From a virus (lineage: Duplodnaviria > Heunggongvirae > Uroviricota > Caudoviricetes), in IMG/VR virus record IMGVR_UViG_3300045988_146577: DNA of 64,000 nt; one strand, 5' to 3'. The translations under genes and the position numbers were made by a program. Shown piece after piece: positions 7,506 to 57,893 of the stretch. Positions within the stretch are counted from its first letter, which is position 1, and each line of letters opens with the position of its first letter. A model generated the notes under the pieces. That model saw nothing but the letters and a program-made list of their open reading frames with translations. It made no database searches and was not told the origin of the DNA.

Positions 7506-8225
7506 TTAGACCATCCCTTTCTGGTGTTTTCTTACCTGCGACCAGGCAATGAATCCTGCCACAACAATAGTGGCAATACCGAAGATGATGCGTACTGTAT
7601 CCCCGCTAGAGATATGACCTTGTGCTTTATCCATAGCAGCGGAAACCTGCGGCATAACATCGGCCAGCTGCGCCAGACCAATACCTGCTGTAACAGTTGC
7701 GCCTGCGGTTTCTTTAGTTACAGGAACAGCCTTCACGGTTTTCACCGGCTTAACAACGCCAGCTCGACGCAGACCTTCCTCAATAACTTCTGCCGCATAC
7801 CAGGTGTTCAGCGTTTTTAGCGGACCTCGCCCATTCTCATGGCGAATGATTGCCTCAACCAAAGGTCGAAGAATGTCGTAATCATGCAGATCGATAATCA
7901 TGTCTGCGGTTACACCAACGGCTTTAGACACCTCATTAATGTAGGCGTCAGTATTATTTTCATTCGGCGGTGCCCAGCGTTCAATAACTTCACGAATGGT
8001 ATCGATACTTGAGCCGTCTTTTGCGCGACGTTTGTCGTGGTAGGTAATTAGAGTCACCGCCAGCGCACGAATCCCCCAAACAGGGTCTTTAAACGTGCAA
8101 AAGCGCGGTTCGTCTGGATTCGCAACCAGACCTTGCCACGGTGATCCTTTATCAAGATTACCGGGGTTATTATTACGAATGCCTCTCGGAGTCTTCATCC
8201 TTGATCTCCTGTTATTGCAGTCCAT
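7506..8225 (-). CDS. putative lysis-cassette protein (possible endolysin; C-terminal transmembrane helix)
   Basis: Position between holin-like and spanin genes; conserved-looking GIRNNNPGNL motif; C-terminal hydrophobic helix. Function is position-based. Confidence 0.4.
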   Translation of the reverse strand: MDCNNRRSRMKTPRGIRNNNPGNLDKGSPWQGLVANPDEPRFCTFKDPVWGIRALAVTLITYHDKRRAKDGSSIDTIREVIERWAPPNENNTDAYINEVSKAVGVTADMIIDLHDYDILRPLVEAIIRHENGRGPLKTLNTWYAAEVIEEGLRRAGVVKPVKTVKAVPVTKETAGATVTAGIGLAQLADVMPQVSAAMDKAQGHISSGDTVRIIFGIATIVVAGFIAWSQVRKHQKGMV

Positions 8226-8737: not shown

Positions 8738-11700
8738 TCAGTTACTTGTTGCCCCAACAGTACCGGCAAATTTCAGCCATTGACCTGACGGACTTCTATT
8801 ACTGCGGTAGTGATAAACGAGGATTGCGTTTGTCACTCCACCGTAATCAGCTTTATGTGACGTTGTTAAACGAATTGTATAATCACCGTTAGGTAGATTA
8901 AAAACTTCGATTATAGATTCTGCTAATTCTACAGCACCAAATCCCGTTATATTGTTGATACTGCCAGCATTGAATCCCATAGCATCGCCAAAGCCAATCC
9001 AATATCTTTTGCTAAACGCCCCATTTGATTTAAGGTGGCTAATGAATGTGGACAAACTCATGCCCATATCCCCACCTGAAATAGAGGAAGTTCGCACAGT
9101 CATGCTTGGAAGAGCACTGCTCTTCACATAGGAACTTAGAAGATTCGTTACCTCTGTTTTCGTATAAGCATTAAGGTTAGCCGCAGTCAAAGTAATATCG
9201 GCAGAGCCATCAAACGCCACACCAGCAATTTTCCTTGCTGTCTGCAATTTTGTGGCGGTTGCAGCATTACCAGTAGTGTTCTGGTTCCCATCTGCATTCA
9301 CACCTGGGATGCTGTCTTTTTTAGTATATATCTGAGTCCAGTCCTCTTCGAACCCATAGCCATCACGTGATGAACGGTAATACAATCCACCATTTTTATA
9401 ATGCGCTCGGATTTGGAGAGTCCGACAACTACCTACGCCTATATAAAAATTTGCAACGATATAAGAATCCCCGGAGCGTGTAACATTATACGCACCTGAT
9501 TCGGCATTCCACGGGACCGCACCACTAGTATCGGCATAAGTTCCAGTAGCGCGTCGAGCAAAAGCAGATACATTTGCAGCTGTTAGTGTTATATCAGCAG
9601 AACCATCAAAAGACACGCCGCTTATTTTTCTAGCAGTTTGCAACTTCGTAGCTGTTGAAGCATTACCGTTCAAACTACCATTTACGCCACCAGTAACATT
9701 TAGTCCATTACCAATGGACACAGCACCGCTGGTATTATTAATTGTAATAGGTCGCAAACCGTTCCATGAACCTAATGTGTTTCCTGATGCTGTTAGCATG
9801 AAATATGTGTTCGATCCATCATTACGGATAAAGAACCCAAAGCTACCGTAAGCAATGCGGAAACCATTTGCATATTTTGAAACGATCTCACCAGAAGACG
9901 TTAATCCGCCAGTTAACGCTCCTCCAGATAGTGGTAAAGCTCCGACATCAGCCGCAGTAGGCTTGTTTTTAGTGTTATACGCTCTGCGCCATCCTGGTGA
10001 ATAGCTCGTCCCGTTAAATACATAGATAAACTCCGCATTAGTGAGAGCACCAGAGACACTCGTCGTTGTGGCCGTTGTTATACGGATCGTATAATTGTTT
10101 GAGCTACTACCGTTATTAAATACCTCAATAACTGCGCCAGCCAGTGGAATAATGCCGCATCCTGTTTCGCTGTCTGGTATGGATGCACTATTTGCATACG
10201 CCCAAGCACAACGCGCTATCCATGCCTTTGCATTAAAAGCACCATTATTTTGCAATAACGTCACTAACTGTGCTGTTGTTATTGCTCCGCCATTACTTCC
10301 TGTAGTTAACCAACCAGTAGGAGATGCCGGGCAACCTATATTTGTTGGCGACAAGGAAATATTTGCCGAGCCGTCAAACGACACCCCATTGATAGTACGC
10401 GCAGTCTGCAACTTCGTAGCAGTAGCCGCGTTGCCCGTTGTATTCTGATTACCAGTCGTATTAACACCTGGCAAATTAATATTCGCAGTACCATCAAAGC
10501 TCACGCCGCCGATAGTTCTTGCCGTCTGAAGTTTTGTAGCAGTTGCAGCATTACCAGTGGTGTTCTGATTACCCGTAGTATTTACACCTGGAAGGTTGAT
10601 ATTTGCAGAACCGTCGAAACCAACTCCACCGATAGATCTTGCCGTCTGCAATTTCGTTGCTGTACTTGCATTACCATTTAATGTTCCGGTGATCCCACCA
10701 GTAACAGACAACGGACCTGAAACTGTTCCTCCGGTTGTTGGCAGTGCTCCAATATCTAACGGCGTCGGTTTCTGATGTGTGCTATACATCGTATAAACAA
10801 CACCATCGGTAACGCTGGAAGGCTTACTAGCTGAATATGTTGGCGATGTATAAATAGAAACTGTCGCATTTGCAGTACAATCCCAATGGATATTTACACG
10901 AGTCGCATAATTGCCAATCTCAACGTAAATATCATATGTATCGCCGGATGTGTTGATCCAGGCGAAATTCGTTAATCCGACAGCTGTACGCTTCCACAAA
11001 GCACCTGTAATCCCTTTGGGGTTTCCATTGCCTGCTCGTAGAACCAGTTCTGAAATGCCTGCCTGATGTGGGGAGCCGACGTTGTAACCAGCGCCACCAA
11101 TCAATGCGATGTAAACGATGGAACTCGCTTGTGGCATTGTAACAGTAGCCAGTTTGAACCACCCGGCCCCGCCAGAGAAAGACATCGTTATTGAATTTAA
11201 AGTACCAATATCTTTCGGCGTTAATGTGATATCCGCAGTCAGTGCTTTACCGTTAACTTTTCGGTTAGATGGCACCCTGCTATTCGCATTGTCATTGGCT
11301 GCTTTAACTGCTTTTGGCGTTGCGGCCAGCGATTCACTGGTGCTATCAACAGCACTGCTAAGTTTCACAACACCTTTAGTTGTAAGGCTTGCGTCTTCCA
11401 TCGCAACTGCACCGGCAATCTCTTCAGCACGATCAGCAGCAGCTTCCGCACGGGTCGCAGCGGATTCAGCAGCAGTTTTGCTCTGAGATGCTGCCGTCGC
11501 ACTGCCTGCCGCCTCTGTCGCCTTCGTGGATGCTGTCGTGGCGCTGCCCTTCGCTGCGGACGCTTGTCTGGTCGCCTCATCTTTTGAAGCAGACGCCGAT
11601 GATGCCGATGACGCCGCCGAACTGGCGGACGATGCGGCAGCCGTTTTTGAGGATTCTGCGCTGGTTTCCGACGCTTTCGCGTTCGTTTCGGATGTCTTCG

Positions 11701-12763
11701 CTGCGGAAGCTGACCTCGCTGCTGCGCTGGCCTGTTCAGTGGCTTCGCCAGCCTTCGTTGTGGCTGTTGAAGCGGATGATGCGGCGCTTTCTGCCGATTT
11801 TCCGGCGGCGGTGGCACTGGCTGAGGCCTGCCCGGCACTTGTTGACGCGGCACTGGCAGACGACGCAGCCGCTGTTTTTGAGCCTGCCGCAGCTGAGGCG
11901 CTCTGTCCCGCTGCCGTCTCAGAAGACCTGGCGTTCGCCTCGGACTTTTTTGCCGCCTTCGCGGAATTTCCTGCCGCCGTTGCCGAGGAAGCGGCACTAC
12001 TGGCGCTCGAGGATGCGTTCGTTTCTGATGATTTCGCTGCCTCTTTTGAGGCCGCCGCATCCCGGGCTGAGGTGGCAGCTTCTGACGCCTTCGTGGTCGC
12101 GGTGGATGCAGAAGTGGCTGCAGATTTTTGTGACGCTGCAGCATTCGTTTCAGACGTTTTCGCGGCACCGGCACTGGTGGCCGCCGCGCTTTTTGAGGAC
12201 TCTGCAGCGGATGCACTTTGAGACGCTTGAGAGGCTTTTTCTCCAGCGGTATTGGCGCTTTCTGCTGCTGCGGCAGCACTGGCCGCCGCCTCACGAGCTT
12301 TGTCGCCAGCAGCATCAATCGCGTCAGTGTTATTTTTATACCACTCAACGTTTTCGTTGTGCTCGTTGACGATCTGCATTAGCGGCTTAACGGTCACTTC
12401 TGTACCGTCTTCACGCTCGATTGTCACCTCATCCAGAGCAGTCAACCAACTGCGCATGGACTTGGAATCAGCCGACATACGCGACATTAGTGCTGTAAAG
12501 CGCGCGCTAAACTGTGTTAAGTCGCCTTCATAGGTCGTAATGATTCGGCACGGAACTTCAGACTGAGTTTCGCCGGTATAAGGTTCTGAGAGAACAATGT
12601 TCGTATCGCTTATTACGCGCTTGATCTCATACAGCTTATTGTCGGGGCCAATGACGATCATCCCCGGCAACACACCATTAGCTGTTACGTTCCAGGCTGT
12701 CCCTGCCCCAACCAGAGTATTGCTACCCTGTGTAAATGTGATAGTACCTTCCCTGTACCACAT
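8738..12763 (-). CDS. tail fibre protein with repeated GNAATATKLQTAR (phage tail-fibre repeat) units and a long Ala/Ser-rich low-complexity segment
   Basis: 1341 aa; at least 5 copies of NTTGNAATATKLQTAR-type repeat; directly downstream of J-like gene. Confidence 0.8.
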   Translation of the reverse strand: MWYREGTITFTQGSNTLVGAGTAWNVTANGVLPGMIVIGPDNKLYEIKRVISDTNIVLSEPYTGETQSEVPCRIITTYEGDLTQFSARFTALMSRMSADSKSMRSWLTALDEVTIEREDGTEVTVKPLMQIVNEHNENVEWYKNNTDAIDAAGDKAREAAASAAAAAESANTAGEKASQASQSASAAESSKSAAATSAGAAKTSETNAAASQKSAATSASTATTKASEAATSARDAAASKEAAKSSETNASSSASSAASSATAAGNSAKAAKKSEANARSSETAAGQSASAAAGSKTAAASSASAASTSAGQASASATAAGKSAESAASSASTATTKAGEATEQASAAARSASAAKTSETNAKASETSAESSKTAAASSASSAASSASSASASKDEATRQASAAKGSATTASTKATEAAGSATAASQSKTAAESAATRAEAAADRAEEIAGAVAMEDASLTTKGVVKLSSAVDSTSESLAATPKAVKAANDNANSRVPSNRKVNGKALTADITLTPKDIGTLNSITMSFSGGAGWFKLATVTMPQASSIVYIALIGGAGYNVGSPHQAGISELVLRAGNGNPKGITGALWKRTAVGLTNFAWINTSGDTYDIYVEIGNYATRVNIHWDCTANATVSIYTSPTYSASKPSSVTDGVVYTMYSTHQKPTPLDIGALPTTGGTVSGPLSVTGGITGTLNGNASTATKLQTARSIGGVGFDGSANINLPGVNTTGNQNTTGNAATATKLQTARTIGGVSFDGTANINLPGVNTTGNQNTTGNAATATKLQTARTINGVSFDGSANISLSPTNIGCPASPTGWLTTGSNGGAITTAQLVTLLQNNGAFNAKAWIARCAWAYANSASIPDSETGCGIIPLAGAVIEVFNNGSSSNNYTIRITTATTTSVSGALTNAEFIYVFNGTSYSPGWRRAYNTKNKPTAADVGALPLSGGALTGGLTSSGEIVSKYANGFRIAYGSFGFFIRNDGSNTYFMLTASGNTLGSWNGLRPITINNTSGAVSIGNGLNVTGGVNGSLNGNASTATKLQTARKISGVSFDGSADITLTAANVSAFARRATGTYADTSGAVPWNAESGAYNVTRSGDSYIVANFYIGVGSCRTLQIRAHYKNGGLYYRSSRDGYGFEEDWTQIYTKKDSIPGVNADGNQNTTGNAATATKLQTARKIAGVAFDGSADITLTAANLNAYTKTEVTNLLSSYVKSSALPSMTVRTSSISGGDMGMSLSTFISHLKSNGAFSKRYWIGFGDAMGFNAGSINNITGFGAVELAESIIEVFNLPNGDYTIRLTTSHKADYGGVTNAILVYHYRSNRSPSGQWLKFAGTVGATSN

Positions 12764-12807
12764 GTTGAATATGCTCCTTGATTTGGCGGGCTATCCTTGC
12801 CCGCCAT

Positions 12808-12826
12808 TAAGTAAATACTTACCTAT
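12808..12826 (-). promoter_or_regulatory. class-2 palindrome upstream of tail fibre gene
   Basis: TAAGTAAATACTTACCTAT followed by hairpin and AAGGAG RBS. Confidence 0.45.
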
Positions 12827-12856
12827 TTTTACCGATATAAAATTTTTTTTCCACCA

Positions 12857-15800
12857 TCACAGACGGCCAATTCTTACTCGTAGGACGTTGTTATCGTCAT
12901 AAACGTCAATCCGCTGACCATTTATAACCAATCGCCCATTGCCGCCGCTATTACCGTTGATCTCAAGCGTTCCATTTTTGCCGAACCGCCATCCAGATCT
13001 ACCGCTAACAAAATTGGTAGATTGCAGATCGCCTACTTTTGCATTGGTGATTGTGCCATCCTTGATATACGCTCCATTCATATAGGCGATACTGTTTTCG
13101 ATAACAAATGGCGTTGTGATCTTCCCGTTAACAGAGTTGACCAAACCAAACCTGTCCGCCTGAACCAAAAACTGAGATAGCCCAGTGGTGTCAATACCAA
13201 GAGCAATACCGGCAACATACTTCTGCCCTCCGCTCGTTGAAGTCTCCATTTTCAACGTCCACGCGGTTGAGACTTTTTTGTTGGTATCAGCAATGGCTGT
13301 TGCCTGCTGTTGAATTGTCGCGGTATTTCCATCCACCTCTGCTTTCAGAGTATCGATTCGCCCACTTAGAGCATTATCTGCCTGCGTTCTCGCTGTCGTT
13401 TCAGTTGTGACCGCCGCAGAAATGTTGGCTGCCGTTTGAGACTCTAAGTTTGTGATTTGAGTCGCCAGTGCCGCATCTTGCTCTGTACGCGTTTTCGTTT
13501 CGGTTGCTACAGCCGCTTTAATATCCTCTTTGTATTGAGAGGTCAGCTTGGTGATCTGAGACGACAACGCCGAGTCAGCATCAGTTCGAGCCTGCGTTTC
13601 AACTGCAACGGCCGCACTAATATCTTTCGCAGTCTGTGCTTTTAAACTTGAAACCTCTTTTGTTAAAGCGGTATCACCATCTGCACGAGCCGTTGTTTCT
13701 CTGGCAAGAGATGCCTCAAGATCATTAGCTTTTGCTGTAAGAGACGTAATCTGAGTGGACAATGCACTATCGGCATCAGTCCTTGCCTTTGTCTCTACAG
13801 CAACCGCTGCGGCAATATCAGTTCCGGTCTGTGCTCGCAGGCTGTTAATTTCTCGTGAGAGCGCCTGGTCAGCACTTGCCCTGGCCTCCTGCTCCTGAGT
13901 GATGGCAGCGGATATATCACCGTCAACCTTTGACTGAAGCTGGTTTATTTGTTTGGCTAACGCAGAGTCCCCGCTTGCTCGAGCCTCCTGCTCACTACGT
14001 ATTGCAGCAGAAATATCATCATCAACCTTTGCCTGAAGTTGTGTGATCTGGCTTGCCAGAGCCGAATCTTCCGTTGCTCGGGCTTCTTGCTCTTCCTTAA
14101 TAGCTGCGACGATATCGTTGCTTACTTTCGACTCAAGCTGAGTGATCTGTGTCGTCAGAGCTTCATCGGCAGATGTACGAGCCTCCTGCTCTGTACTAAT
14201 CGCCGCGCTGATATCTCCTTCAAACTTAGATTGCAGCTGAGTGACACGCTTTGCCAACGCTTCATCGCCATCGGCACGAGCGGTGGACTCTTCCAGAATA
14301 CTGGCCTTAATGTCTTCGCCAATTTCTACGCGAATTTCCTCAACCTTCGTGGCCATTGCAGACATATCATCAGCAAAGGTTTTCTGTGTTGTTGCGATCT
14401 TCGCGTTATTGACCATCTGCTTGTGCTGGTCTTCATCTTGACGAAGAGCCAGGTCAATATTTGTTTTGGCCAACGCCTCAATGTTCGTAGTCAGTTCTGC
14501 ACTGGCACGATCGACCTCTGCAACCGTCTTTTTCATTTCTTCAACGGCAGCGGAGCTTTCCTCTACCGTTGACTGCAACACTTCCAGTTGTTTAGCGTTT
14601 GCAGCATCGCCTTCAACACGAGCCTCGCTTTCCTTAGCAATAAGAGCCGCCGCTTCATCTCTTGCAGCCTTTATTGCCTCGACTGTATTAGCGAGAGCTT
14701 TATCGTGTTCAGATACGGTGTTTTCGATTTCAACAATTGCAGCATCAGTAGCATCAATTTTTTCAAACGCTTCATTGACCTTGTCGATCGTTGCCGAAAC
14801 CTCACCTTTAAGCTCGGTTTGTGCGTTCTCCAAAGCATCGCTACGCTCGTTGAATTTTATTTCAAAATCCGCGAGGTTATCGCTGAACTGCTTATCTAAT
14901 TCAGCTATATCTTCCTTAACGTCGTTTACCGACCCCTCCAAAGATTCGACGCTCTGGTTGATATGCTCATTTAACTCGTCAACTGCTTCTTGAGAGGCTT
15001 TGCTGTTGATGTCCTCAAGCAGAGCCTGACCAAGCTCGGAAGATGTAATTTTGCCAGTCAGGAACGACAGTACATCGCGAGTTGTCGCCTCTGTACCCAA
15101 GTTTGAGTTCGGAGGACTTAACATACCTCGCTTGTTCGATGCTCGAACCCAGTAATACCACGTTTCGCTATCCCCAAGACCAGCATGTGTAAAGGTGGTG
15201 CTTGCAGACTCTGCGATCAGTTTCGCCGTATCCAGATTGTTGGTCTGGGATGCGTAAACATTAATGTGATCAAGGTCTACCGAATCTGGATTAACCCAAT
15301 TCAGTATCACATTACGATAGTCTCCAACGGCCGTTAATGACGTTGGTGCATCCGGCGGTGTCATTGTGCCCAGCACCTGATAAACGGCACTGATAATTTC
15401 TGTTTTTTTACCGTTGAATGAAACCGCATACAGTTGGAAGTCGTAGCGTCCATTCTCCGCGACATTAACGATTTCGTATTGCTCTTCGGTTACACGCGCC
15501 GATTGCCAGTTCGATACATTGTTTTCATCAGAACGTCGCCAACTGATCCAATACTCTGGAGATTTCCCTTCCCATGTTGCAGTCAGTTTTACTGACAGGT
15601 TGCCAGGGCTTGAGAGATAAGTCCCTTCGGTGATTTGCAAATTAGACGGCTTGGAGTAAGTCGGGTCCAATACCGTCGTATTTTGCGGGATAAGCGTTGC
15701 ACCATTGTCGATCGCCTCATATTTAGACGGATTGTTCTCAACAGCGGTGATGTCAAAGCTACCCGGCGTTTCCCCCTGCGCGATGTTAACGATGCGAACG

Positions 15801-27120: not shown

Positions 27121-27551
27121 ATATTCGCCCCTACTTCAAGATGCCCAGGTCTTCCTCGTAGCCCCCAGCGGCGATGAACACTGGACACCTTTAATTTTTG
27201 ACCTTCAAGGATCAGTACATCATCAAGTTGTACAGCCGCTTCCAAAGGGACAACTAACACAGCATCAAACAGCTCCAGACTCGCCTTACCACGACTACCA
27301 GAGCTATCAGCACGAACTGACGATTTCTCATTACTCTGTTCGAACTTAACCACGCCGACATTCGTCTTCCTGACGAATTGTAATTGCGCCTCACCGTAAA
27401 CGTTCTTTGCGCCAAAGCGGTAGATCGCAATTTCTGTTTGCCATGAAATATTCATGCTCTCTCCCTGTTGTTGTCGGTCGCTCTCATTACTGGCCAAAAA
27501 CCCTTTAGACCAAAAGTAAATAATGCGACTGGCGTTACGCACGGCGAACAA
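27111..27551 (-). CDS. putative head-tail connector/adaptor protein
   Basis: Position between head and tail genes; real start may be internal Met (MNISWQT). Confidence 0.35.
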   Translation of the reverse strand: MFAVRNASRIIYFWSKGFLASNESDRQQQGESMNISWQTEIAIYRFGAKNVYGEAQLQFVRKTNVGVVKFEQSNEKSSVRADSSGSRGKASLELFDAVLVVPLEAAVQLDDVLILEGQKLKVSSVHRRWGLRGRPGHLEVGANIWV

Positions 27552-47329: not shown

Positions 47330-47641
47330 TCAGGCTATTGCCATCACTGATGCTCTCTGAATTTCTTGCTGGGCCACGCGGTTAACTTCCATCAAAGCCA
47401 GTTCGAGCTGATGTTCCGGCCACATTCTTTGAAATGCCATCCAGCCTTTTCCACGCTGGCGACGAACATTCATTACATAACGAGTAAAGGTGTTTTTATC
47501 GAAAGACACCGCTGTTTCACGGAACAGACGAATAGAGGTTCCATTGGCAACGATGTCCAGCAAAGTTAATTGAGCAACCAGCGCAGGCTTCTCTTTTCTC
47601 TTCTGGTCTTTGTCCAGACCAAGAACCAATGATTTTTTCAT
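47330..47641 (-). CDS. hypothetical small basic protein (103 aa)
   Basis: GGAG RBS before ATG at 47641; class-1 palindrome in leader. Confidence 0.45.
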   Translation of the reverse strand: MKKSLVLGLDKDQKRKEKPALVAQLTLLDIVANGTSIRLFRETAVSFDKNTFTRYVMNVRRQRGKGWMAFQRMWPEHQLELALMEVNRVAQQEIQRASVMAIA

Positions 47642-50917: not shown

Positions 50918-52951
50918 TTACTTAACCTGGTGGCCAGGTTTAGCACCAGCATCCGGGCTTAACAGGAAGATATCTTTCCCACCGGGGCCAGCAGCCATCA
51001 CCATACCTTCGGAGATACCGAAGCGCATTTTACGCGGAGCCAGGTTAGCCACCATAATGGTGTGACGACCAATCAGTGCCTGTGGGTCTGGATAAGCAGA
51101 ACGGATGCCTGAGAAGACATTGCGTTTTTCACCACCTAGATCCAGCGTCAGACGCAGCAGTTTGTCAGAGCCTTCAACAAACTCCGCGTTTTCAATCAGC
51201 GCCACGCGCAGGTCAACTTTGGCGAAGTCATCAAAGGTGATGGTTTCCTGAATCGGATCGTCTGCCAGCGGGCCAGTAACTGGCGCGGCAGTGGCTTTCA
51301 CTTCTTCTTTAGAGGCTTCCACCAGTGCTTCAACCTGCTTCATGTCGATGCGGTTATACAGTGCTTTGAACGGATTAACTTTGTGCGCCAGCAGCGGTTG
51401 CTGGATGCCATCCCAGGTCAGTTCCGTATTGAGGAATGCTTCTGCACGCTCGGTCAGTTTCGGCAGTACCGGCTTCAGGTAAGTCATCAGCACGCGGAAC
51501 AGGTTGATGCCCATTGAGCAAATTGCCTGCAGGTCGGCATCGCGGCCTTCCTGTTTCGCCACCACCCACGGAGCCTGTTCATCGACATAGCGGTTAGCCA
51601 GGTCAGCCAATGCCATGATTTCACGGATAGCTTTACCAAATTCACGGCTTTCCCATGCTTCGCCAATCACTTCAGCGGCATCAGTAAAGGTTTTGTACAG
51701 TTGCGGGTCAGCCAGTTCGCTTGCCAGCACGCCGTCAAAACGCTTGTTGATAAAGCCTGCATTACGAGAGGCCAGGTTAACCACTTTGTTCACGATATCG
51801 GCATTCACGCGCTGAACGAAATCCTCCAGGTTGAGATCGATATCATCAATGCGCGAAGAGAGTTTCGCAGTGTAGTAGTAACGCAGGCTGTCAGCGTCAA
51901 AATGATTCAGCCAGGTGCTGGCTTTAATAAAGGTGCCGCGAGACTTGGACATCTTTGCGCCGTTCACCGTCACATAGCCATGAACAAACAGGTTGGTCGG
52001 CTTGCGGAAGTTGCTGCCTTCCAGCATGGCAGGCCAGAACAGGCTGTGGAAGTAAACAATATCTTTACCGATGAAGTGGTACAGCTCGGCGGTGGAGTCT
52101 TTCTTCCAGTATTCATCGAAGCTTACGCTGTCGCCGCGCTTGTCGCACAGATTCTTGAAAGAACCCATGTAGCCAATCGGTGCGTCCAGCCAGACGTAGA
52201 AATATTTGCCCGGCGCGTTCGGAATTTCAAAACCGAAGTAAGGCGCATCGCGGGAGATATCCCACTGTTGCAGGCCGGATTCAAACCATTCCTGCATTTT
52301 GTTCGCCACCTGCTCCTGCAACGCGCCGCTGCGGGTCCATGCCTGCAACATTTCGCTGAAAGAAGGCAGATCAAAGAAGAAGTGTTCGGAATCACGCATT
52401 ACCGGGGTAGCGCCAGAAACCACCGATTTCGGCTCGATCAATTCAGTCGGGCTATATGTTGCGCCGCAGACTTCACAGTTATCGCCGTATTGATCTGGCG
52501 CTTTACATTTCGGGCAGGTGCCTTTCACAAAACGATCCGGCAGGAACATGCCTTTTTCCGGGTCGTACAACTGAGAGATAGTGCGGTTTTTAATAAAACC
52601 GTTCTCTTTCAGGCGAGTATAGATAAGCTCAGACAGCTGGCGGTTCTCTTCGCTGTGCGTCGAGTGATAGTTGTCATAGCTGATGTTAAAGCCTGCGAAA
52701 TCAGTCTGGTGTTCCTGACTCATTTCGCCAATCATCTGCTCCGGAGTGATACCAAGCTGCTGAGCTTTCAGCATGATCGGCGTACCGTGGGCATCGTCGG
52801 CACAGATGAAATTAACCTCGTGGCCGCGCATTCGCTGGTAACGAACCCAGACATCAGCCTGGATGTGCTCCAGCATATGGCCGAGGTGGATTGAGCCGTT
52901 AGCGTACGGCAGCGCGCACGTCACCAGAATTTTCTTCGCGACTTGGGTCAT
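50918..52951 (-). CDS. metG: methionyl-tRNA synthetase
   Basis: 677 aa; class I HIGH (GSIHLGH) and KMSKS motifs; Zn knuckle CPKC...CEVC; C-terminal tRNA-binding domain; start at MTQVAKK (track ORF extends 43 codons upstream). Confidence 0.95.
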
Positions 52952-53108
52952 AGTAGGCATTACTTCTTTGTAGTGAAAAGGGGCTTGATAGTAACAAAAT
53001 GGCCTTATGTCTGCCATGTGATAACAGCATTTCTCATAAATGATTAAATGTCGTAGCTGGAGTACACTACAAGGCGACAATTGCGCAAATTAAAATAAAG
53101 GAGACGGG

Positions 53109-54209
53109 ATGAGCGAGTCCAAATCGCCGGATGCCCTGAGAGCAATGGTAGCCGGTACGCTGGCTAATTTTCAGCACCCAACCCTGAAACACAACCTGAC
53201 TACGCTTAAAGCGTTACACCATGTTGCGTTGATGGATGACACACTGCATGTCGAACTAATCATGCCTTTCGTGTGGAATAAGCCTTTTGAAGACCTGAAA
53301 GAGCAATGTAGTGGTGATCTGCTCCGTATCACTGGCGCAAAGGCTATTGACTGGAAGCTGTCGTACAACATTGCCACGCTTAAGCGCGTCAAAAACCAAC
53401 CAGGCATTAATGGCGTTAAGAACATTATCGCCGTCAGCTCAGGCAAGGGCGGCGTGGGTAAATCCTCCACGGCGGTAAACCTGGCACTGGCGTTGGCTGC
53501 TGAAGGTGCGAAAGTTGGTATTTTGGATGCCGATATCTATGGTCCATCAATTCCAACCATGCTGGGCGCGGAAAACCAACGTCCAACCTCACCTGACGGT
53601 ACTCACATGGCACCTATCATGTCTCATGGCCTGGCAACCAACTCTATTGGTTATCTGGTCACCGACGACAATGCAATGGTGTGGCGTGGACCGATGGCCA
53701 GCAAGGCGCTGATGCAGATGTTGCAGGAAACTCTATGGCCTGATCTGGACTATCTCGTTCTCGATATGCCGCCGGGCACTGGTGATATTCAGTTGACGCT
53801 GGCGCAGAACATTCCTGTAACTGGTGCGGTTGTGGTAACTACGCCGCAAGACATCGCGCTGATCGATGCGAAGAAAGGCATTGTGATGTTCGAAAAAGTC
53901 GAAGTGCCGGTACTGGGTATCGTCGAAAACATGAGTGTGCATATTTGCAGTAACTGCGGTCATCACGAGCCAATTTTTGGCACCGGTGGCGCACAGAAAC
54001 TGGCCGAGAAATACAACACGCAGTTGTTAGGCCAAATGCCTCTTCATATCTCTCTTCGTGAAGATCTGGATAACGGAACACCAACCGTTATTAGTCGTCC
54101 AGATAGTGAATTTACGGCTATTTATCGTGACCTCGCAGATCGCGTTGCTGCCCAAATGTATTGGCAAGGTGAAGTAATACCTGGCGAAATCGCATTCCGC
54201 GCAGTGTGA
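53109..54209 (+). CDS. apbC: Fe-S cluster carrier ATPase ApbC/Mrp
   Basis: Deviant Walker A SGKGGVGKSS, CxxC (CSNCGHH); AAGGAG RBS; divergent from metG as in enterobacterial chromosomes. Confidence 0.9.
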   Translation: MSESKSPDALRAMVAGTLANFQHPTLKHNLTTLKALHHVALMDDTLHVELIMPFVWNKPFEDLKEQCSGDLLRITGAKAIDWKLSYNIATLKRVKNQPGINGVKNIIAVSSGKGGVGKSSTAVNLALALAAEGAKVGILDADIYGPSIPTMLGAENQRPTSPDGTHMAPIMSHGLATNSIGYLVTDDNAMVWRGPMASKALMQMLQETLWPDLDYLVLDMPPGTGDIQLTLAQNIPVTGAVVVTTPQDIALIDAKKGIVMFEKVEVPVLGIVENMSVHICSNCGHHEPIFGTGGAQKLAEKYNTQLLGQMPLHISLREDLDNGTPTVISRPDSEFTAIYRDLADRVAAQMYWQGEVIPGEIAFRAV

Positions 54210-54215
54210 TAAAAA

Positions 54216-54234
54216 GGTGGTGCATTGCACCACC
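54216..54234 (-). terminator. hairpin terminator (for HumD-like gene; overlaps apbC 3-prime end)
   Basis: GGTGGTGCA-t-TGCACCACC hairpin followed by UUUUUAUCA on minus strand. Confidence 0.5.
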
Positions 54235-54246
54235 TAAACAGTTCTC

Positions 54247-54636
54247 CTACATCACAGGACAATCATCAAACTCGCCACTTCTTGCGTCGTTGATAATGTG
54301 AGTGATCACACCAAACACGGCATTGCTGCCCGTGCATCCATCGTCATCCTTTGGCAATGCTTCCTTCTTACCGGTTCTTAAATCCTCCAGATGCTGACGT
54401 GGGTACTTCCGGTATCTTTTTACGCGATATTCCCCATCCAGAGCGCATACAAGCAGAGAACCATCAACCGGGGTAAGTGAGGAATCGACCACCAGCAATG
54501 CACCCTGTAATATTCCCTCACGATGATGGCTGTCAGCCGCTCTCATGAAGTAGGTCGCTGAAGGATGTCTAATTATCTGCTGATCAAGAGAAATACGGCT
54601 CTCAGCATAATCCGCCGCAGGAGAAGGGAAGCCCAT
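54247..54636 (-). CDS. UmuD'-like S24 peptidase-domain protein (HumD-like, lacks N-terminal cleavable arm)
   Basis: Starts MGFPSPAADY, matching UmuD just after its autocleavage site; Ser (DSHH) and Lys (RVKRYRK) catalytic dyad positions conserved; LexA box upstream. Confidence 0.8.
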   Translation of the reverse strand: MGFPSPAADYAESRISLDQQIIRHPSATYFMRAADSHHREGILQGALLVVDSSLTPVDGSLLVCALDGEYRVKRYRKYPRQHLEDLRTGKKEALPKDDDGCTGSNAVFGVITHIINDARSGEFDDCPVM

Positions 54637-54652
54637 AGCGTTTTGCCCTCAA

Positions 54653-54672
54653 TACTGTTCATTTATACAGTA
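54653..54672 (-). promoter_or_regulatory. LexA (SOS) box
   Basis: TACTGTTCATTTATACAGTA = CTGT-N8-ACAG consensus, about 17 nt upstream of HumD-like start. Confidence 0.75.
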
Positions 54673-54755
54673 TACATGAAAGAAGCTCACTCAGTGCAAC
54701 TGATCGGTACATAGCACCAGACAAAGGAACGTTATTTTCTCGAACAAGAAAAGGT

Positions 54756-54771
54756 AGAAAACAAATTGTTT
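54756..54771 (+). promoter_or_regulatory. class-1 palindrome fused to terminator hairpin (54772-54792)
   Basis: AGAAAACAAATTGTTT + AAGGCCAC-aacta-GTGGCCTT. Confidence 0.45.
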
Positions 54772-54808
54772 AAGGCCACAACTAGTGGCCTTAATGGAGA
54801 AGGGATGC

Positions 54809-55372
54809 TTATTGGCTATGGCTAAAAATCAAATGAGACACTTCATTTGGTTGTAGCTCGTCAAGATCCGGGGCCACAAAACCTTTTCCGAAAGACTTCA
54901 CAAGTGATTCACCAGCCGCATCATTGTCACCTATTACGCGAAAGTCATACGGCAGCATTGCCAGTTGACGACGTAATCCTGCTGAGAAAGTCGAACCTAA
55001 CAGCGCCCACGAATTTCCGCCCGCGTTGTGCACTGCTGCACTTTTAAAAATCGACTCAGTTATCCATATCGGTCCATCTTTTAAAGGAAGATAGGTTCCC
55101 CATAGTAGCTGTCTGCCGTTCGCTCGTGTGAAATACCGGGCCATCTTCGGATTGCTATGCTGCTTAGGAGCGCCTGGTCTGTATGTCTGATACCCGGCCA
55201 ACATCCCATCAAACCTGTATAGAGGGAACGTAACAACTCCTTCGCTTTCATCGATCCACTGTCTATATGGATGCACATCATGGCGGTAGTTACGAGTTAG
55301 CAAATGAGCTTCCAGCTTTCCATATTTGGTCATAACTTCGCATCCCTCATAACACTTCCCATTTATCACCAT
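54809..55372 (-). CDS. hypothetical protein with TOPRIM-like acidic motifs
   Basis: ITESIF ... GDNDAAGE resembles Glu / DxD TOPRIM signature; start may be M14 (55333). Confidence 0.35.
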   Translation of the reverse strand: MVINGKCYEGCEVMTKYGKLEAHLLTRNYRHDVHPYRQWIDESEGVVTFPLYRFDGMLAGYQTYRPGAPKQHSNPKMARYFTRANGRQLLWGTYLPLKDGPIWITESIFKSAAVHNAGGNSWALLGSTFSAGLRRQLAMLPYDFRVIGDNDAAGESLVKSFGKGFVAPDLDELQPNEVSHLIFSHSQ

Positions 55373-56201
55373 ATTTCTCCATAGCTCTTAGCCAGTAAAC
55401 ATGGCCACTAGGCATAGTGATGTGAGGCTCGCCAAACTCTTCTCCATGCACATCAAAGATGTCCCCAACAGAGAATTGGGGGATTTCTACGCCGTTTTCA
55501 CCTATATGCGTAATTCGTATACGTTTCGGTTGAGATTCTCCCCCTTTGAGCGAGTTGTTCACTGCTCTGGCAATCTTCTCCCGCAATTGCTGCGTTCCGT
55601 GGTACTGAACCGCAATATCCCTCAACTCATTCACCAGTTCTCGAATCTGGTGATCTTTAAGCTCATTATTTGAGTGATGGGTAACAACTCTGGTTAATTC
55701 ACCCTTGTCTTTTGCTCTTACGTATGCAGCTCTTGTGCATTCGACCCATGTATTACCGCCTACATTAACTTCGTAGATTAGGCTGGACTTATCTGTCAAT
55801 TCGGAACAAATACGGACCGTGGTCTGGCAACTAGAGCATTCGCAGTTATCGCGGAAACCGTGGTCTACTGGCTTCGGTTTCACATCATCAACTTTTTCTA
55901 CCCTATTGGAATTTAAATACTTCGAAGCCTTGCTATGCCAATCGCTGGTTTTAGGATCTTGTCCATCCATCAAACGCCAGGCTTCAGCGATTAACTCATA
56001 ACTAGTGACTGTAGCTTCCTGCGCATCACCAATAAGTCGTGTAATCTCTCTTTCAAGCCGACCGCCTAGCTCTGTTTTAGTGCAATGTTCTGACCAATCG
56101 CCAGCCTCAAGCAGCGCGAGAATGCTTAAAATATCGTCCAATAGAACGGTAGTATTATCGACTTCCTTCTGAAACTCACCGGCTACTGATTTATGCATCA
56201 T
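55347..56201 (-). CDS. hypothetical protein (284 aa, Cys cluster CECSSCQ)
   Basis: ORF overlapping upstream and downstream genes (operon). Confidence 0.45.
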   Translation of the reverse strand: MMHKSVAGEFQKEVDNTTVLLDDILSILALLEAGDWSEHCTKTELGGRLEREITRLIGDAQEATVTSYELIAEAWRLMDGQDPKTSDWHSKASKYLNSNRVEKVDDVKPKPVDHGFRDNCECSSCQTTVRICSELTDKSSLIYEVNVGGNTWVECTRAAYVRAKDKGELTRVVTHHSNNELKDHQIRELVNELRDIAVQYHGTQQLREKIARAVNNSLKGGESQPKRIRITHIGENGVEIPQFSVGDIFDVHGEEFGEPHITMPSGHVYWLRAMEKYGDKWEVL

Positions 56202-57274
56202 TCGTCATCCTCATCCGAGTCATCCTCATCACAGGATGAGAGTAGTGGGTTAGTCATTCGCCCTACTTGAGTGGCGTAGCCACGCCGACAGAGATTGCGC
56301 AGCACACTGTATATTTCGAACATCTCGGTTCGTTCATCGCCAACATCAAGCTCAGATGCTATAGCGTGGCATTCAGTCGCGAGAGCCGATATTTTCTGAA
56401 ATAACTCTGCATTATTCACTGTTCGACTCCTGCGGCGTTCTGGTAGTGACATCCAGTGTGTGACATTGCTAATCAGACCATATTCATTAGTTTGAGGATG
56501 GTTGCCGTTAGCGTCTCCGTATTTAAGACTCTCCATAAAGCCATAATGCCTATCACCATTAACGCTCACAAAGCCGTAATAAGCAGGTATAACGCCGATC
56601 TCACACGTAACCAGTAAAGGAAAACTAGTTCTCCAATTTAGCTCGCCAATTACAGGCATTCGCTCACTACAGCTTATCCAGCTATCCTTAATGCCACTAT
56701 CTTGACTCTGAAGCATGGCGGCGCGGCAGGCGTTCCATGCTCTCCAGTTGCGTGACTCAATCCCAGCTGGATAAGGGTCAGAGCTTCCTACGATGCACTT
56801 TTCATCCTCAACCATCCACCGTTCAAAATCCGCTCGGAACTTATCGTTGTCAACCACCGCTGGCTGCGGTAACTTTGGTTCCATCAGTGACTCCAGTTCA
56901 GCAATGCGCTTCTCTGCGGCTTCCAGCTCAACGCGCAGCTTCCCAACCGTTAGCGCAATATCCTCGTTCTCCTGGTCACGGCGTTTGATGTATTGCTGGT
57001 TCCTTTCCCGTTCATCCAGTAATACCAGCACAGTAGCCGGGTTGGCTGCGGCGATGAATTCAGCATTGGCCTGCTGCTCCATTTGGAAATCTTCATCGAA
57101 ACCGCTTTCAGGATGCGCTCCTTCAATTCTGCAAATGGGAATATATCCAGCAGCCTCGCGATGAATTAGTGCATCATCACCATCAAATCTGCCATCTCCA
57201 TATTCTAGCGACCACTCGCCACACGTTGCTTTCTCTGCCTTTTCACGCAGTGCCTGATAGTCAATCTTGCTCAC
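56198..57274 (-). CDS. Ea22-like early prophage protein
   Basis: N-terminus MSKIDYQALREKAEKATCGEWSLEYGDGRFD and DUF551-like C-terminus typical of lambdoid Ead/Ea22-family proteins; acidic tail. Confidence 0.55.
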   Translation of the reverse strand: MSKIDYQALREKAEKATCGEWSLEYGDGRFDGDDALIHREAAGYIPICRIEGAHPESGFDEDFQMEQQANAEFIAAANPATVLVLLDERERNQQYIKRRDQENEDIALTVGKLRVELEAAEKRIAELESLMEPKLPQPAVVDNDKFRADFERWMVEDEKCIVGSSDPYPAGIESRNWRAWNACRAAMLQSQDSGIKDSWISCSERMPVIGELNWRTSFPLLVTCEIGVIPAYYGFVSVNGDRHYGFMESLKYGDANGNHPQTNEYGLISNVTHWMSLPERRRSRTVNNAELFQKISALATECHAIASELDVGDERTEMFEIYSVLRNLCRRGYATQVGRMTNPLLSSCDEDDSDEDDE

Positions 57275-57822
57275 TGGTTGCCTCCTTTGCGAAGCTGTTC
57301 AGCAATACTTACGCATATCTCTGCGCCTCTAATCAGCCCCGGAACGTTCTTGTTTGGCCCAACTTCACCATCAACAAAATCAATCATCGCGTTACGAGCC
57401 ATATCCACGCCCTGCGCACGTACTTCAGCCAGAAAAGCATCGGTGGCTGGAGTTTCTATGCACTGCATTTCATGCAATGTCTGCATGTCCATAAAATCCC
57501 CGTCAGGCTCTGTGATAGTGGCGTTATATGCCGAGTAAATTTTTGACGCTTCATGTGCCAGTTCCGCAGCCTTAGATCGCAATGCCACATTCTCCGCCGC
57601 TAATGCGTCTCTCTGCGCCCGCAACTTCTCAATTTCGGCAGCCATGTAGTAACCAACCATAGCGAAGACGGCAAAAGAGTTGTCTGCCTCATCAGGCGAC
57701 ACTGAGGCCATTAGCAGGCCATCGTAAAAATCGTGACTCCCATTGGTGATCGCCACCGCATAGGAGTCGTGGTTCTCGCGCTTGTGAATGAGAACTACGG
57801 GATTTTCGATTTTGTTACTCAT
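57271..57822 (-). CDS. hypothetical early-region protein
   Basis: 183 aa, coiled-coil middle; translationally coupled to Ea22-like gene. Confidence 0.45.
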   Translation of the reverse strand: MSNKIENPVVLIHKRENHDSYAVAITNGSHDFYDGLLMASVSPDEADNSFAVFAMVGYYMAAEIEKLRAQRDALAAENVALRSKAAELAHEASKIYSAYNATITEPDGDFMDMQTLHEMQCIETPATDAFLAEVRAQGVDMARNAMIDFVDGEVGPNKNVPGLIRGAEICVSIAEQLRKGGNQ

Positions 57823-57893
57823 GTGTTTTTCTCTTCTTTGCTGTTACATAAGCACTACCAAGTGCTGGTTATTTTTCACAAATAAGAAAAGGT

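Follow-up and report, generated by a model that had tools for sequence, protein, structure and literature searches.

A short gene in a 64,000-nt stretch of tailed-phage DNA (hereafter the window) raises the question of whether a mobile element that carries no gene for a UmuC-like polymerase can nevertheless supply its host with a UmuD′ subunit that needs no processing. A sequence-only reading had described this gene as a stand-alone, SOS-regulated relative of HumD from phage P1, placed directly after apbC. We examined the locus, the element that carries it, its regulation, the expression of the gene for an identical protein, and the protein family to which it belongs.

Location and transcription unit of humD

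The 129-residue open reading frame proposed for positions 54247-54672 is present, but it lies on the minus strand and converges with apbC instead of running in the same direction. According to the ORF list, the humD coding sequence occupies 54247..54636 on the minus strand (129 codons plus stop), with its ATG at 54636..54634 and its TAG at 54249..54247, while apbC occupies 53109..54209 on the plus strand (ApbC equivalog in NCBIfam, 759 bits). On direct reading, a Shine-Dalgarno sequence, GAGGG (54646..54650, minus strand), is found 9 nt ahead of the humD ATG. The stop codons of humD and apbC are separated by 37 nt, and a terminator scan combined with RNA folding placed a predicted intrinsic terminator of humD in this gap (54215..54235, minus strand), with a 9-bp GC-rich stem and then UUUUUAU, read along the humD strand, and a folding energy of -15.3 kcal/mol (z = -2.67). 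The same scan found a terminator-like hairpin at 54770..54794 on the minus strand, 3′ of the upstream toprim gene and between that gene and the humD unit, so that humD looks like a single-gene transcription unit. No gene diverging from the LexA box in the manner of P1 lxr was found, the only ORFs at that place having at most 49 codons, and an Rfam scan of the whole window gave no matches at gathering thresholds.

The upstream neighbour of humD (54809..55372, minus strand) encodes a 187-residue protein made up of a toprim domain alone, similar to phage DNA primase profiles just in their central part (PHROG 849, positions 143-333 of 435). The 3′ part of this gene (54728..55021) is ~90% identical to P7 DNA located beside an IS903 insertion, from which it follows that the P1-like module of the element reaches past humD. 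On the other side, the window carries a divergent metG-apbC(mrp) pair (50918..54209) in the arrangement seen on the E. coli chromosome, with 89% nucleotide identity to K-12 over 3.3 kb and protein identities of 99% for MetG and 94% for ApbC. The protein identities exceed the nucleotide identity, pointing to strong purifying selection on this captured housekeeping pair, and the apbC gene of phage Cyrano (CYRAN_99) has been listed as a lysogeny-expressed moron (PMC9928086). Further upstream of humD, a 358-codon ORF (56198..57274, minus strand) encodes an Ead/Ea22-like domain fused to DUF551 at a place where a related plasmid, pMRY16-002_2, has several separate small genes; the stretch 56458..57866 is a hot spot of mosaicism and includes lambdoid (HK140-like) DNA.

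An SSU5-like phage-plasmid without umuC

The window is collinear with positions 27185 to 91583 of the E. coli plasmid pMRY16-002_2 (NZ_AP017612.1, 108,986 bp) at 93-98% identity, and the annotation of that plasmid gives the same metG-apbC-humD-toprim order. pMRY16-002_2 carries genes for RepB, ParB, terminase, portal, capsid, tape-measure and tail proteins together with genes for RecA, DnaE, helicase, primase, ligase, NrdAB, ThyA and DfrA51. Judged by its sequence relationships, the element is a phage-plasmid of the SSU5/pHCM2 type. The best phage match to the window is Escherichia phage Cyrano (OV696614, the same as pLF82), an SSU5-like phage-plasmid of the adherent-invasive strain LF82 that is inducible by ciprofloxacin, by 39-fold (PMC9928086).

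The earlier statement that umuC is missing was borne out beyond the window itself. A tblastn search with K-12 UmuC returned only noise (E of at least 2.8) from both the window and the whole 109-kb pMRY16-002_2, whereas K-12 UmuD found the humD ORF at 8e-21. Similarly, no Y-family polymerase appears in the PGAP annotation of the complete pMRY16-002_2. With no umuC on the window or its relative, humD is a stand-alone gene, as it is in P1. Outside the stretch that corresponds to the window, pMRY16-002_2 has genes for a RecA of its own and for a Pol III alpha subunit of the DnaE type (plasmid positions 7523..8596 and 11573..15091); the presence of RecA and a pre-cut UmuD′ on this plasmid, with UmuC absent, makes an odd partial Pol V toolkit.

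A perfect LexA box precedes humD

The consensus LexA box reported upstream of humD is perfect, although the gap that separates it from the ATG is 16 nt and not ~17 nt. This SOS box (54653..54672, minus strand) reads TACTGTTCATTTATACAGTA in the window and TACTGTATAAATGAACAGTA on the gene strand, so that the order along the gene strand is TACTGTATAAATGAACAGTA, then TTGAGGGCAAAACGCT, then ATG. It is the only match to TACTGT-N8-ACAGTA in the 64 kb, and none of 100 shuffled sequences contained one. The shorter pattern CTGT-N8-ACAG occurs a second time at 47512..47527 (CTGTTTCACGGAACAG); this copy, with its GC-rich spacer and its position within overlapping ORFs, does not exceed the 0.9 expected by chance, and it is probably not an SOS box.

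All 20 nt of the humD box are identical to the annotated LexA site of P1 and P7, which the P7 record labels "LexA; regulation of humD expression" and the P1 record labels "LexA binding site in the regulatory region of lxr and humD". The layout also matches that of K-12 umuD, in which the box TACTGTATATAAAAACAGTA lies 19 nt before the ATG, and LexA boxes precede the homologues in N15, phiKO2 (where the box is annotated) and HK639. When Cyrano (OV696614, 1320..1500) was compared with the window (54637..54820), similarity began only ~37 nt before the humD ATG, and the sequences further upstream were unrelated. Cyrano humD nevertheless has a perfect box of different sequence, TACTGTATGTGTATACAGTA, at the same distance of 16 nt, with TATACT retained at the box edge. 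By this comparison the promoter region is swapped between the two elements and the operator preserved, and the occurrence of a perfect box at 16 nt despite unrelated upstream DNA argues that the operator is under selection.

A putative humD promoter (54669..54699, minus strand) consists of a -35 element TTGCAC (54699..54694), a 19-nt spacer and a -10 element TATACT (54674..54669), which overlaps the LexA box by its last four bases. TATACT is common to P7 and Cyrano, and TTGCAC is common to P1 and P7 at an equal distance. This assignment leans on conservation with P1, P7 and Cyrano and is tentative, since a consensus scan called no sigma-70 promoter upstream of humD and the 19-nt spacer makes a weak consensus match.

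Expression of humD in Cyrano and LF82

The window protein is 100% identical to CYRAN_98 of the E. coli phage-plasmid Cyrano (pLF82), and transcript levels of CYRAN_98 are available from RNA-seq of LF82 (GSE154648, as re-analysed in tables S1 and S4 of PMC9928086; all values below are log2 fpkm from that source), the promoter-proximal sequence of Cyrano being different from that of the window. CYRAN_98 stood at 7.44/6.94 in stationary LB culture, 9.56/9.89 in condition B1 and 9.14/9.03 in condition B6, and reached 11.37/11.30 after 1 h and 12.12/12.31 after 6 h in macrophages. Between stationary LB culture and 6 h in macrophages, host umuD went from 5.2-5.5 to 8.8-8.9, umuC from 3.4 to 6.4, sulA from 7.1-7.2 to 9.85 and dinI from 7.3 to 10.1-10.2. 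CYRAN_98 was thus up ~30-fold in macrophages alongside host umuDC, sulA and dinI, while its neighbours CYRAN_97, CYRAN_99 (apbC) and CYRAN_100 (metG) were flat and did not follow the humD pattern. At 6 h in macrophages, the CYRAN_98 transcript exceeded that of host umuD ~10-fold and that of umuC ~50-fold. Macrophages put genotoxic stress and SOS on LF82 (PMC9928086), and because CYRAN_98 rises with the SOS genes under these conditions, the gene for the identical protein behaves like an SOS gene. CYRAN_98 is also appreciable outside macrophages (log2 9-9.9 in B1 and B6), which may mean that repression leaks or that further signals play a part.

A HumD-family protein that begins at the UmuD cleavage site

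The assignment to HumD was supported. The protein matches the NF051876 equivalog model ("HumD family translesion DNA polymerase") at 219.8 bits against a cutoff of 120, over positions 1-129 of its 129 residues, and the proposed alignment with UmuD and HumD gave 92% identity to P7 HumD and 44% to K-12 UmuD; amino-acid identity to P1 HumD is 91.5-92%. It also matches PHROG 811, "UmuD-like protein", at 2.7e-54, and Pfam Peptidase_S24. In a three-way alignment Met1-Gly2 falls on UmuD Cys24|Gly25, confirming that the protein starts at the equivalent of the autocleavage product. The UmuD subfamily model NF007621 scores 87 bits, below its cutoff of 110, and the protein has no cleavable N-terminal arm, only Met1 preceding Gly2. 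To describe the family we counted residues in 120 cluster representatives that are at least 67% identical, with counts that total 121; exactly one residue precedes the cleavage-site Gly in 110 of these 121 sequences.

The best sequence matches in the PDB are to UmuD′ (1UMU at 6.7e-23, 1I4V and 1AY9; E from 1e-17 to 1e-23), and 8GMT, UmuD on the RecA filament, is matched as well. An AF2 model built from a diverse alignment has a mean pLDDT of 75, with a core above 80, and its top Foldseek matches are 1UMU and 1AY9 (TM 0.76), with the C-domains of LexA and lambda CI ranked below UmuD′. An earlier model built from 96 homologues at least 67% identical reached a pLDDT of only 41.5 and was discarded. 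The predicted fold is of the S24 peptidase/UmuD′ type.

The acidic C-terminal tail

UmuD ends 10 residues before the end of HumD, and HumD differs from UmuD′ by an insertion of 4 residues and an acidic C-terminal extension of 10 residues. This extension, SGEFDDCPVM, is encoded by codons 120-129 (54250..54279, minus strand) and is of low confidence in the AF2 model, in which it has no secondary structure. Residues 122-129, EFDDCPVM, recur in the family with counts of E 118, F 117, D 118, D 113, C 109, P 117, V 110 and M 95 out of 121, and on these alignments the motif is the best-conserved feature specific to the HumD family. In a more diverse set of 66 representatives, taken from a library clustered at 50% identity and comprising 34 N-extended and 32 pre-truncated proteins, an acidic tail was present in 21/32 pre-truncated and 0/34 N-extended proteins. 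Its variants include EFDDVPVM, EFDDTPF, EWDDLPVI and FEFHDNLPF.

The HumD tail resembles the C-terminal tip of E. coli SSB, MDFDDDIPF, which is a well-known protein-docking motif (PMC5872125, PMC7913777); we found no literature on the HumD tail or its likeness to the SSB tip. It is a speculative and rather unlikely possibility, prompted by the resemblance of the two motifs, that the tail is an SSB-tip-like short linear motif that docks onto SSB-partner sites or onto UmuC or RecA. If it were true, HumD would go beyond an armless UmuD′: it would be a subunit rewired to recruit, or hijack, replication and repair factors of the host during SOS.

The tail also bears on a different account of the gene, according to which HumD is induced by SOS but has a main job other than Pol V mutagenesis, acting as a modulator that biases replication and repair towards the phage-plasmid during induction. 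Its contacts would then be the RecA filament, Pol III alpha or beta, heterodimers with host UmuD, or the partner proteins of SSB, made in the manner of UmuD′ or through the tail. The most conserved family-specific feature is indeed this acidic tail, which is predicted to be flexible, and not the protease site, and it occurs in none of the full-length UmuD-like proteins examined. The transcript level in macrophages, far above the UmuD′2C stoichiometry when set against host umuC, the RecA, DnaE, helicase and primase genes of the relative plasmid, and a CRISPRi screen in which P1 humD was non-essential for the phage, being dispensable for lytic growth, point the same way. Against this stand the high conservation of the UmuD′ core with its GFPSPAADY N-terminal arm, and the P1 GenBank record, in which HumD, 92% identical to the window protein, is entered as "DNA repair; functionally complements E. 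coli UmuD'"; PMC7092418 is in agreement that P1 HumD complements UmuD′. An alternative partner has no support in the data, and we regard such a modulator as decidedly unlikely.

Selection on humD

Comparison of the window humD with those of P7 and P1 gave a dN/dS of 0.045-0.048 at a dS of 0.87. These values are a sign of old divergence under strong purifying selection, and not of a recent transfer or a decaying fragment. We therefore reject the view that the gene is a functionless, 5′-truncated remnant of umuDC in the course of decay, to which the lack of an adjacent umuC and the degenerate GDSM protease motif might have pointed: it is effectively refuted by the selection across that distance and by the strong, regulated transcription in Cyrano, and the start exactly at the cleavage-site Gly, the gene's own Shine-Dalgarno sequence and SOS box, and hundreds of homologues of 126-130 residues with the same start and tail likewise make it highly improbable.

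The Ser/Lys dyad

Both positions of the catalytic dyad are retained in the window protein, as had been noted from the sequence: in the alignment Ser36 corresponds to UmuD Ser60 and Lys73 to UmuD Lys97. The surrounding motif has changed, the GDSM of UmuD reading ADSH with a one-residue deletion. Across the HumD family position 36 is Ser in 76/121, Thr in 43/121 and Ala in 2/121 sequences, while Lys73 is retained in 118; N15, phiKO2, HK140 and HK639 all have Thr at position 36, and HK639 also has Met in place of Lys73. The diverse set divides along the same line as for the tail. The motif G-[DENH]-S-M is found in 28/34 and the Lys in 30/34 N-extended proteins, whereas among pre-truncated proteins G-D-S-M is found in 0/32 and the Lys in 16/32, the others having R, C, V or F. 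These alignments suggest that the Ser/Lys dyad is probably vestigial in HumD. Such decay is the pattern expected once self-cleavage is not needed, and whether or not a protein keeps the dyad is therefore a poor guide to the function of HumD. The sequence-only reading had held that loss of catalytic residues would speak against a HumD role; this does not apply, because the dyad varies across the family and is unneeded in a protein that is made pre-cut.

An active S24 self-cleaving protease, or a repressor of the LexA or CI kind, might be read from the Pfam Peptidase_S24 match, from Ser36 and Lys73, and from the labels 'LexA-like peptidase' and 'LexA family transcriptional regulator' in Cyrano and some RefSeq entries, but this reading is scarcely credible and was rejected: the LexA model TIGR00498 gives 27.2 bits where its cutoff is 110.95, the protein consists of the S24 core only and has neither an N-terminal DNA-binding domain nor a cleavage-site region upstream of Gly2, and the dyad is variable, in the family and in the diverged pre-truncated homologues alike.

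Relatives and distribution of humD

The window gene is like humD of P1 and P7 in its length of 129 codons, in the MGFPSP start and the EFDDCPV(M/I) end of its product, and in its presence on an element that has no umuC. The ORF and box together (54248..54683) are ~86% identical to P7 at the nucleotide level. The settings differ. In P1 the carrier is a myovirus, whereas the window element is an SSU5-like siphovirus phage-plasmid; humD lies between apbC and the toprim gene in the window but between lxr and phd-doc in P1; and the divergent lxr gene with which P1 humD shares its operator belongs to 1.1 kb that is absent from the window. The distance from box to ATG is 16 nt in the window as against 19 nt in P1, the box itself being identical.

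With E. coli UmuD′ the protein shares 44% identity over the whole UmuD′ core, the same predicted fold and an SOS box at a similar distance. Unlike UmuD, HumD is made short, with neither the 24-residue arm nor the cleavage site, and its gene is not part of a umuC operon. N15 gp26, phiKO2 gp23, HK140 gp28, HK639 gp28 and genes of Citrobacter prophages are closer, at 62-71% identity, and are stand-alone genes whose products have the same pre-truncated start and tail. UmuD-like morons of temperate phages differ from the window humD in lying at prophage ends, after tail-fibre genes and often divergent from a dinI homologue; in Citrobacter prophages the homologue is at the prophage end beside a divergent dinI, with no umuC. 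This frequent companion, dinI, is absent from both the window and pMRY16-002_2. Plasmid operons of the mucAB, impAB and samAB type likewise place SOS-regulated accessory subunits of the UmuD family on mobile elements (PMC7092418, PMC11541004), but the A subunit of these operons is full-length and cleavable and their B subunit is a Y-family polymerase of their own, whereas the window has neither a cleavable arm nor a polymerase gene of this kind.

Of 5426 complete E. coli genomes, 777 contain a match to a 601-nt humD region, at 706 places on plasmids and 113 on chromosomes. Most of these matches are 80-90% identical (P1-like), and the full SSU5-type context is found in 24 genomes. Homologues were found by tblastn in 92 phage records, including P1, P7, D6, RCS47, SJ46, N15, phiKO2, HK140 and HK639.

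Discussion

The gene in the window is very probably humD, a LexA-controlled gene for a pre-cut UmuD′ that is carried on an SSU5-like phage-plasmid and would work with the UmuC of the host. The analysis establishes that the protein belongs to the HumD family and has a pre-truncated start, that its gene has an SOS box, is not accompanied by umuC and is under strong purifying selection, and that the Cyrano counterpart shows SOS-like induction. That HumD partners UmuC, and that it affects mutagenesis or the tolerance of damage, is proposed by analogy with P1. The non-essentiality of P1 humD in the CRISPRi screen makes a benefit to the element less certain.

In the mechanism that we envisage, which draws good support from the homology to P1 HumD and from the transcript levels in Cyrano, host LexA would bind the SOS box, part of which is shared with the likely -10 element, and would keep humD expression low in an undamaged cell. 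Upon DNA damage, RecA would be activated, LexA would cleave itself, and humD would be transcribed with the SOS regulon of the host. As its product begins at the equivalent of UmuD Gly25, it would skip the slow RecA-mediated processing by which UmuD becomes UmuD′. HumD, made devoid of the UmuD N-terminal arm, would be expected to dimerise and to bind host UmuC, giving a Pol V-like translesion polymerase.

The gene is not new, as near-identical E. coli plasmids already carry it in RefSeq under the product name "HumD family translesion DNA polymerase", and it is an ordinary, catalogued member of the HumD family on a known type of phage-plasmid. The annotation of some copies nevertheless calls for correction, the identical protein of Cyrano/pLF82 being labelled 'LexA-like peptidase S24' and proteins elsewhere 'LexA family transcriptional regulator'. 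By analogy with P1, widespread phage-plasmids of clinical E. coli would supply an SOS-induced, pre-activated subunit of Pol V. Some of these carriers bear resistance genes, and one is the plasmid of LF82, a Crohn's-associated strain in which the humD transcript inside macrophages stands ~10-fold above that of host umuD; this could raise stress-induced mutagenesis in the host.
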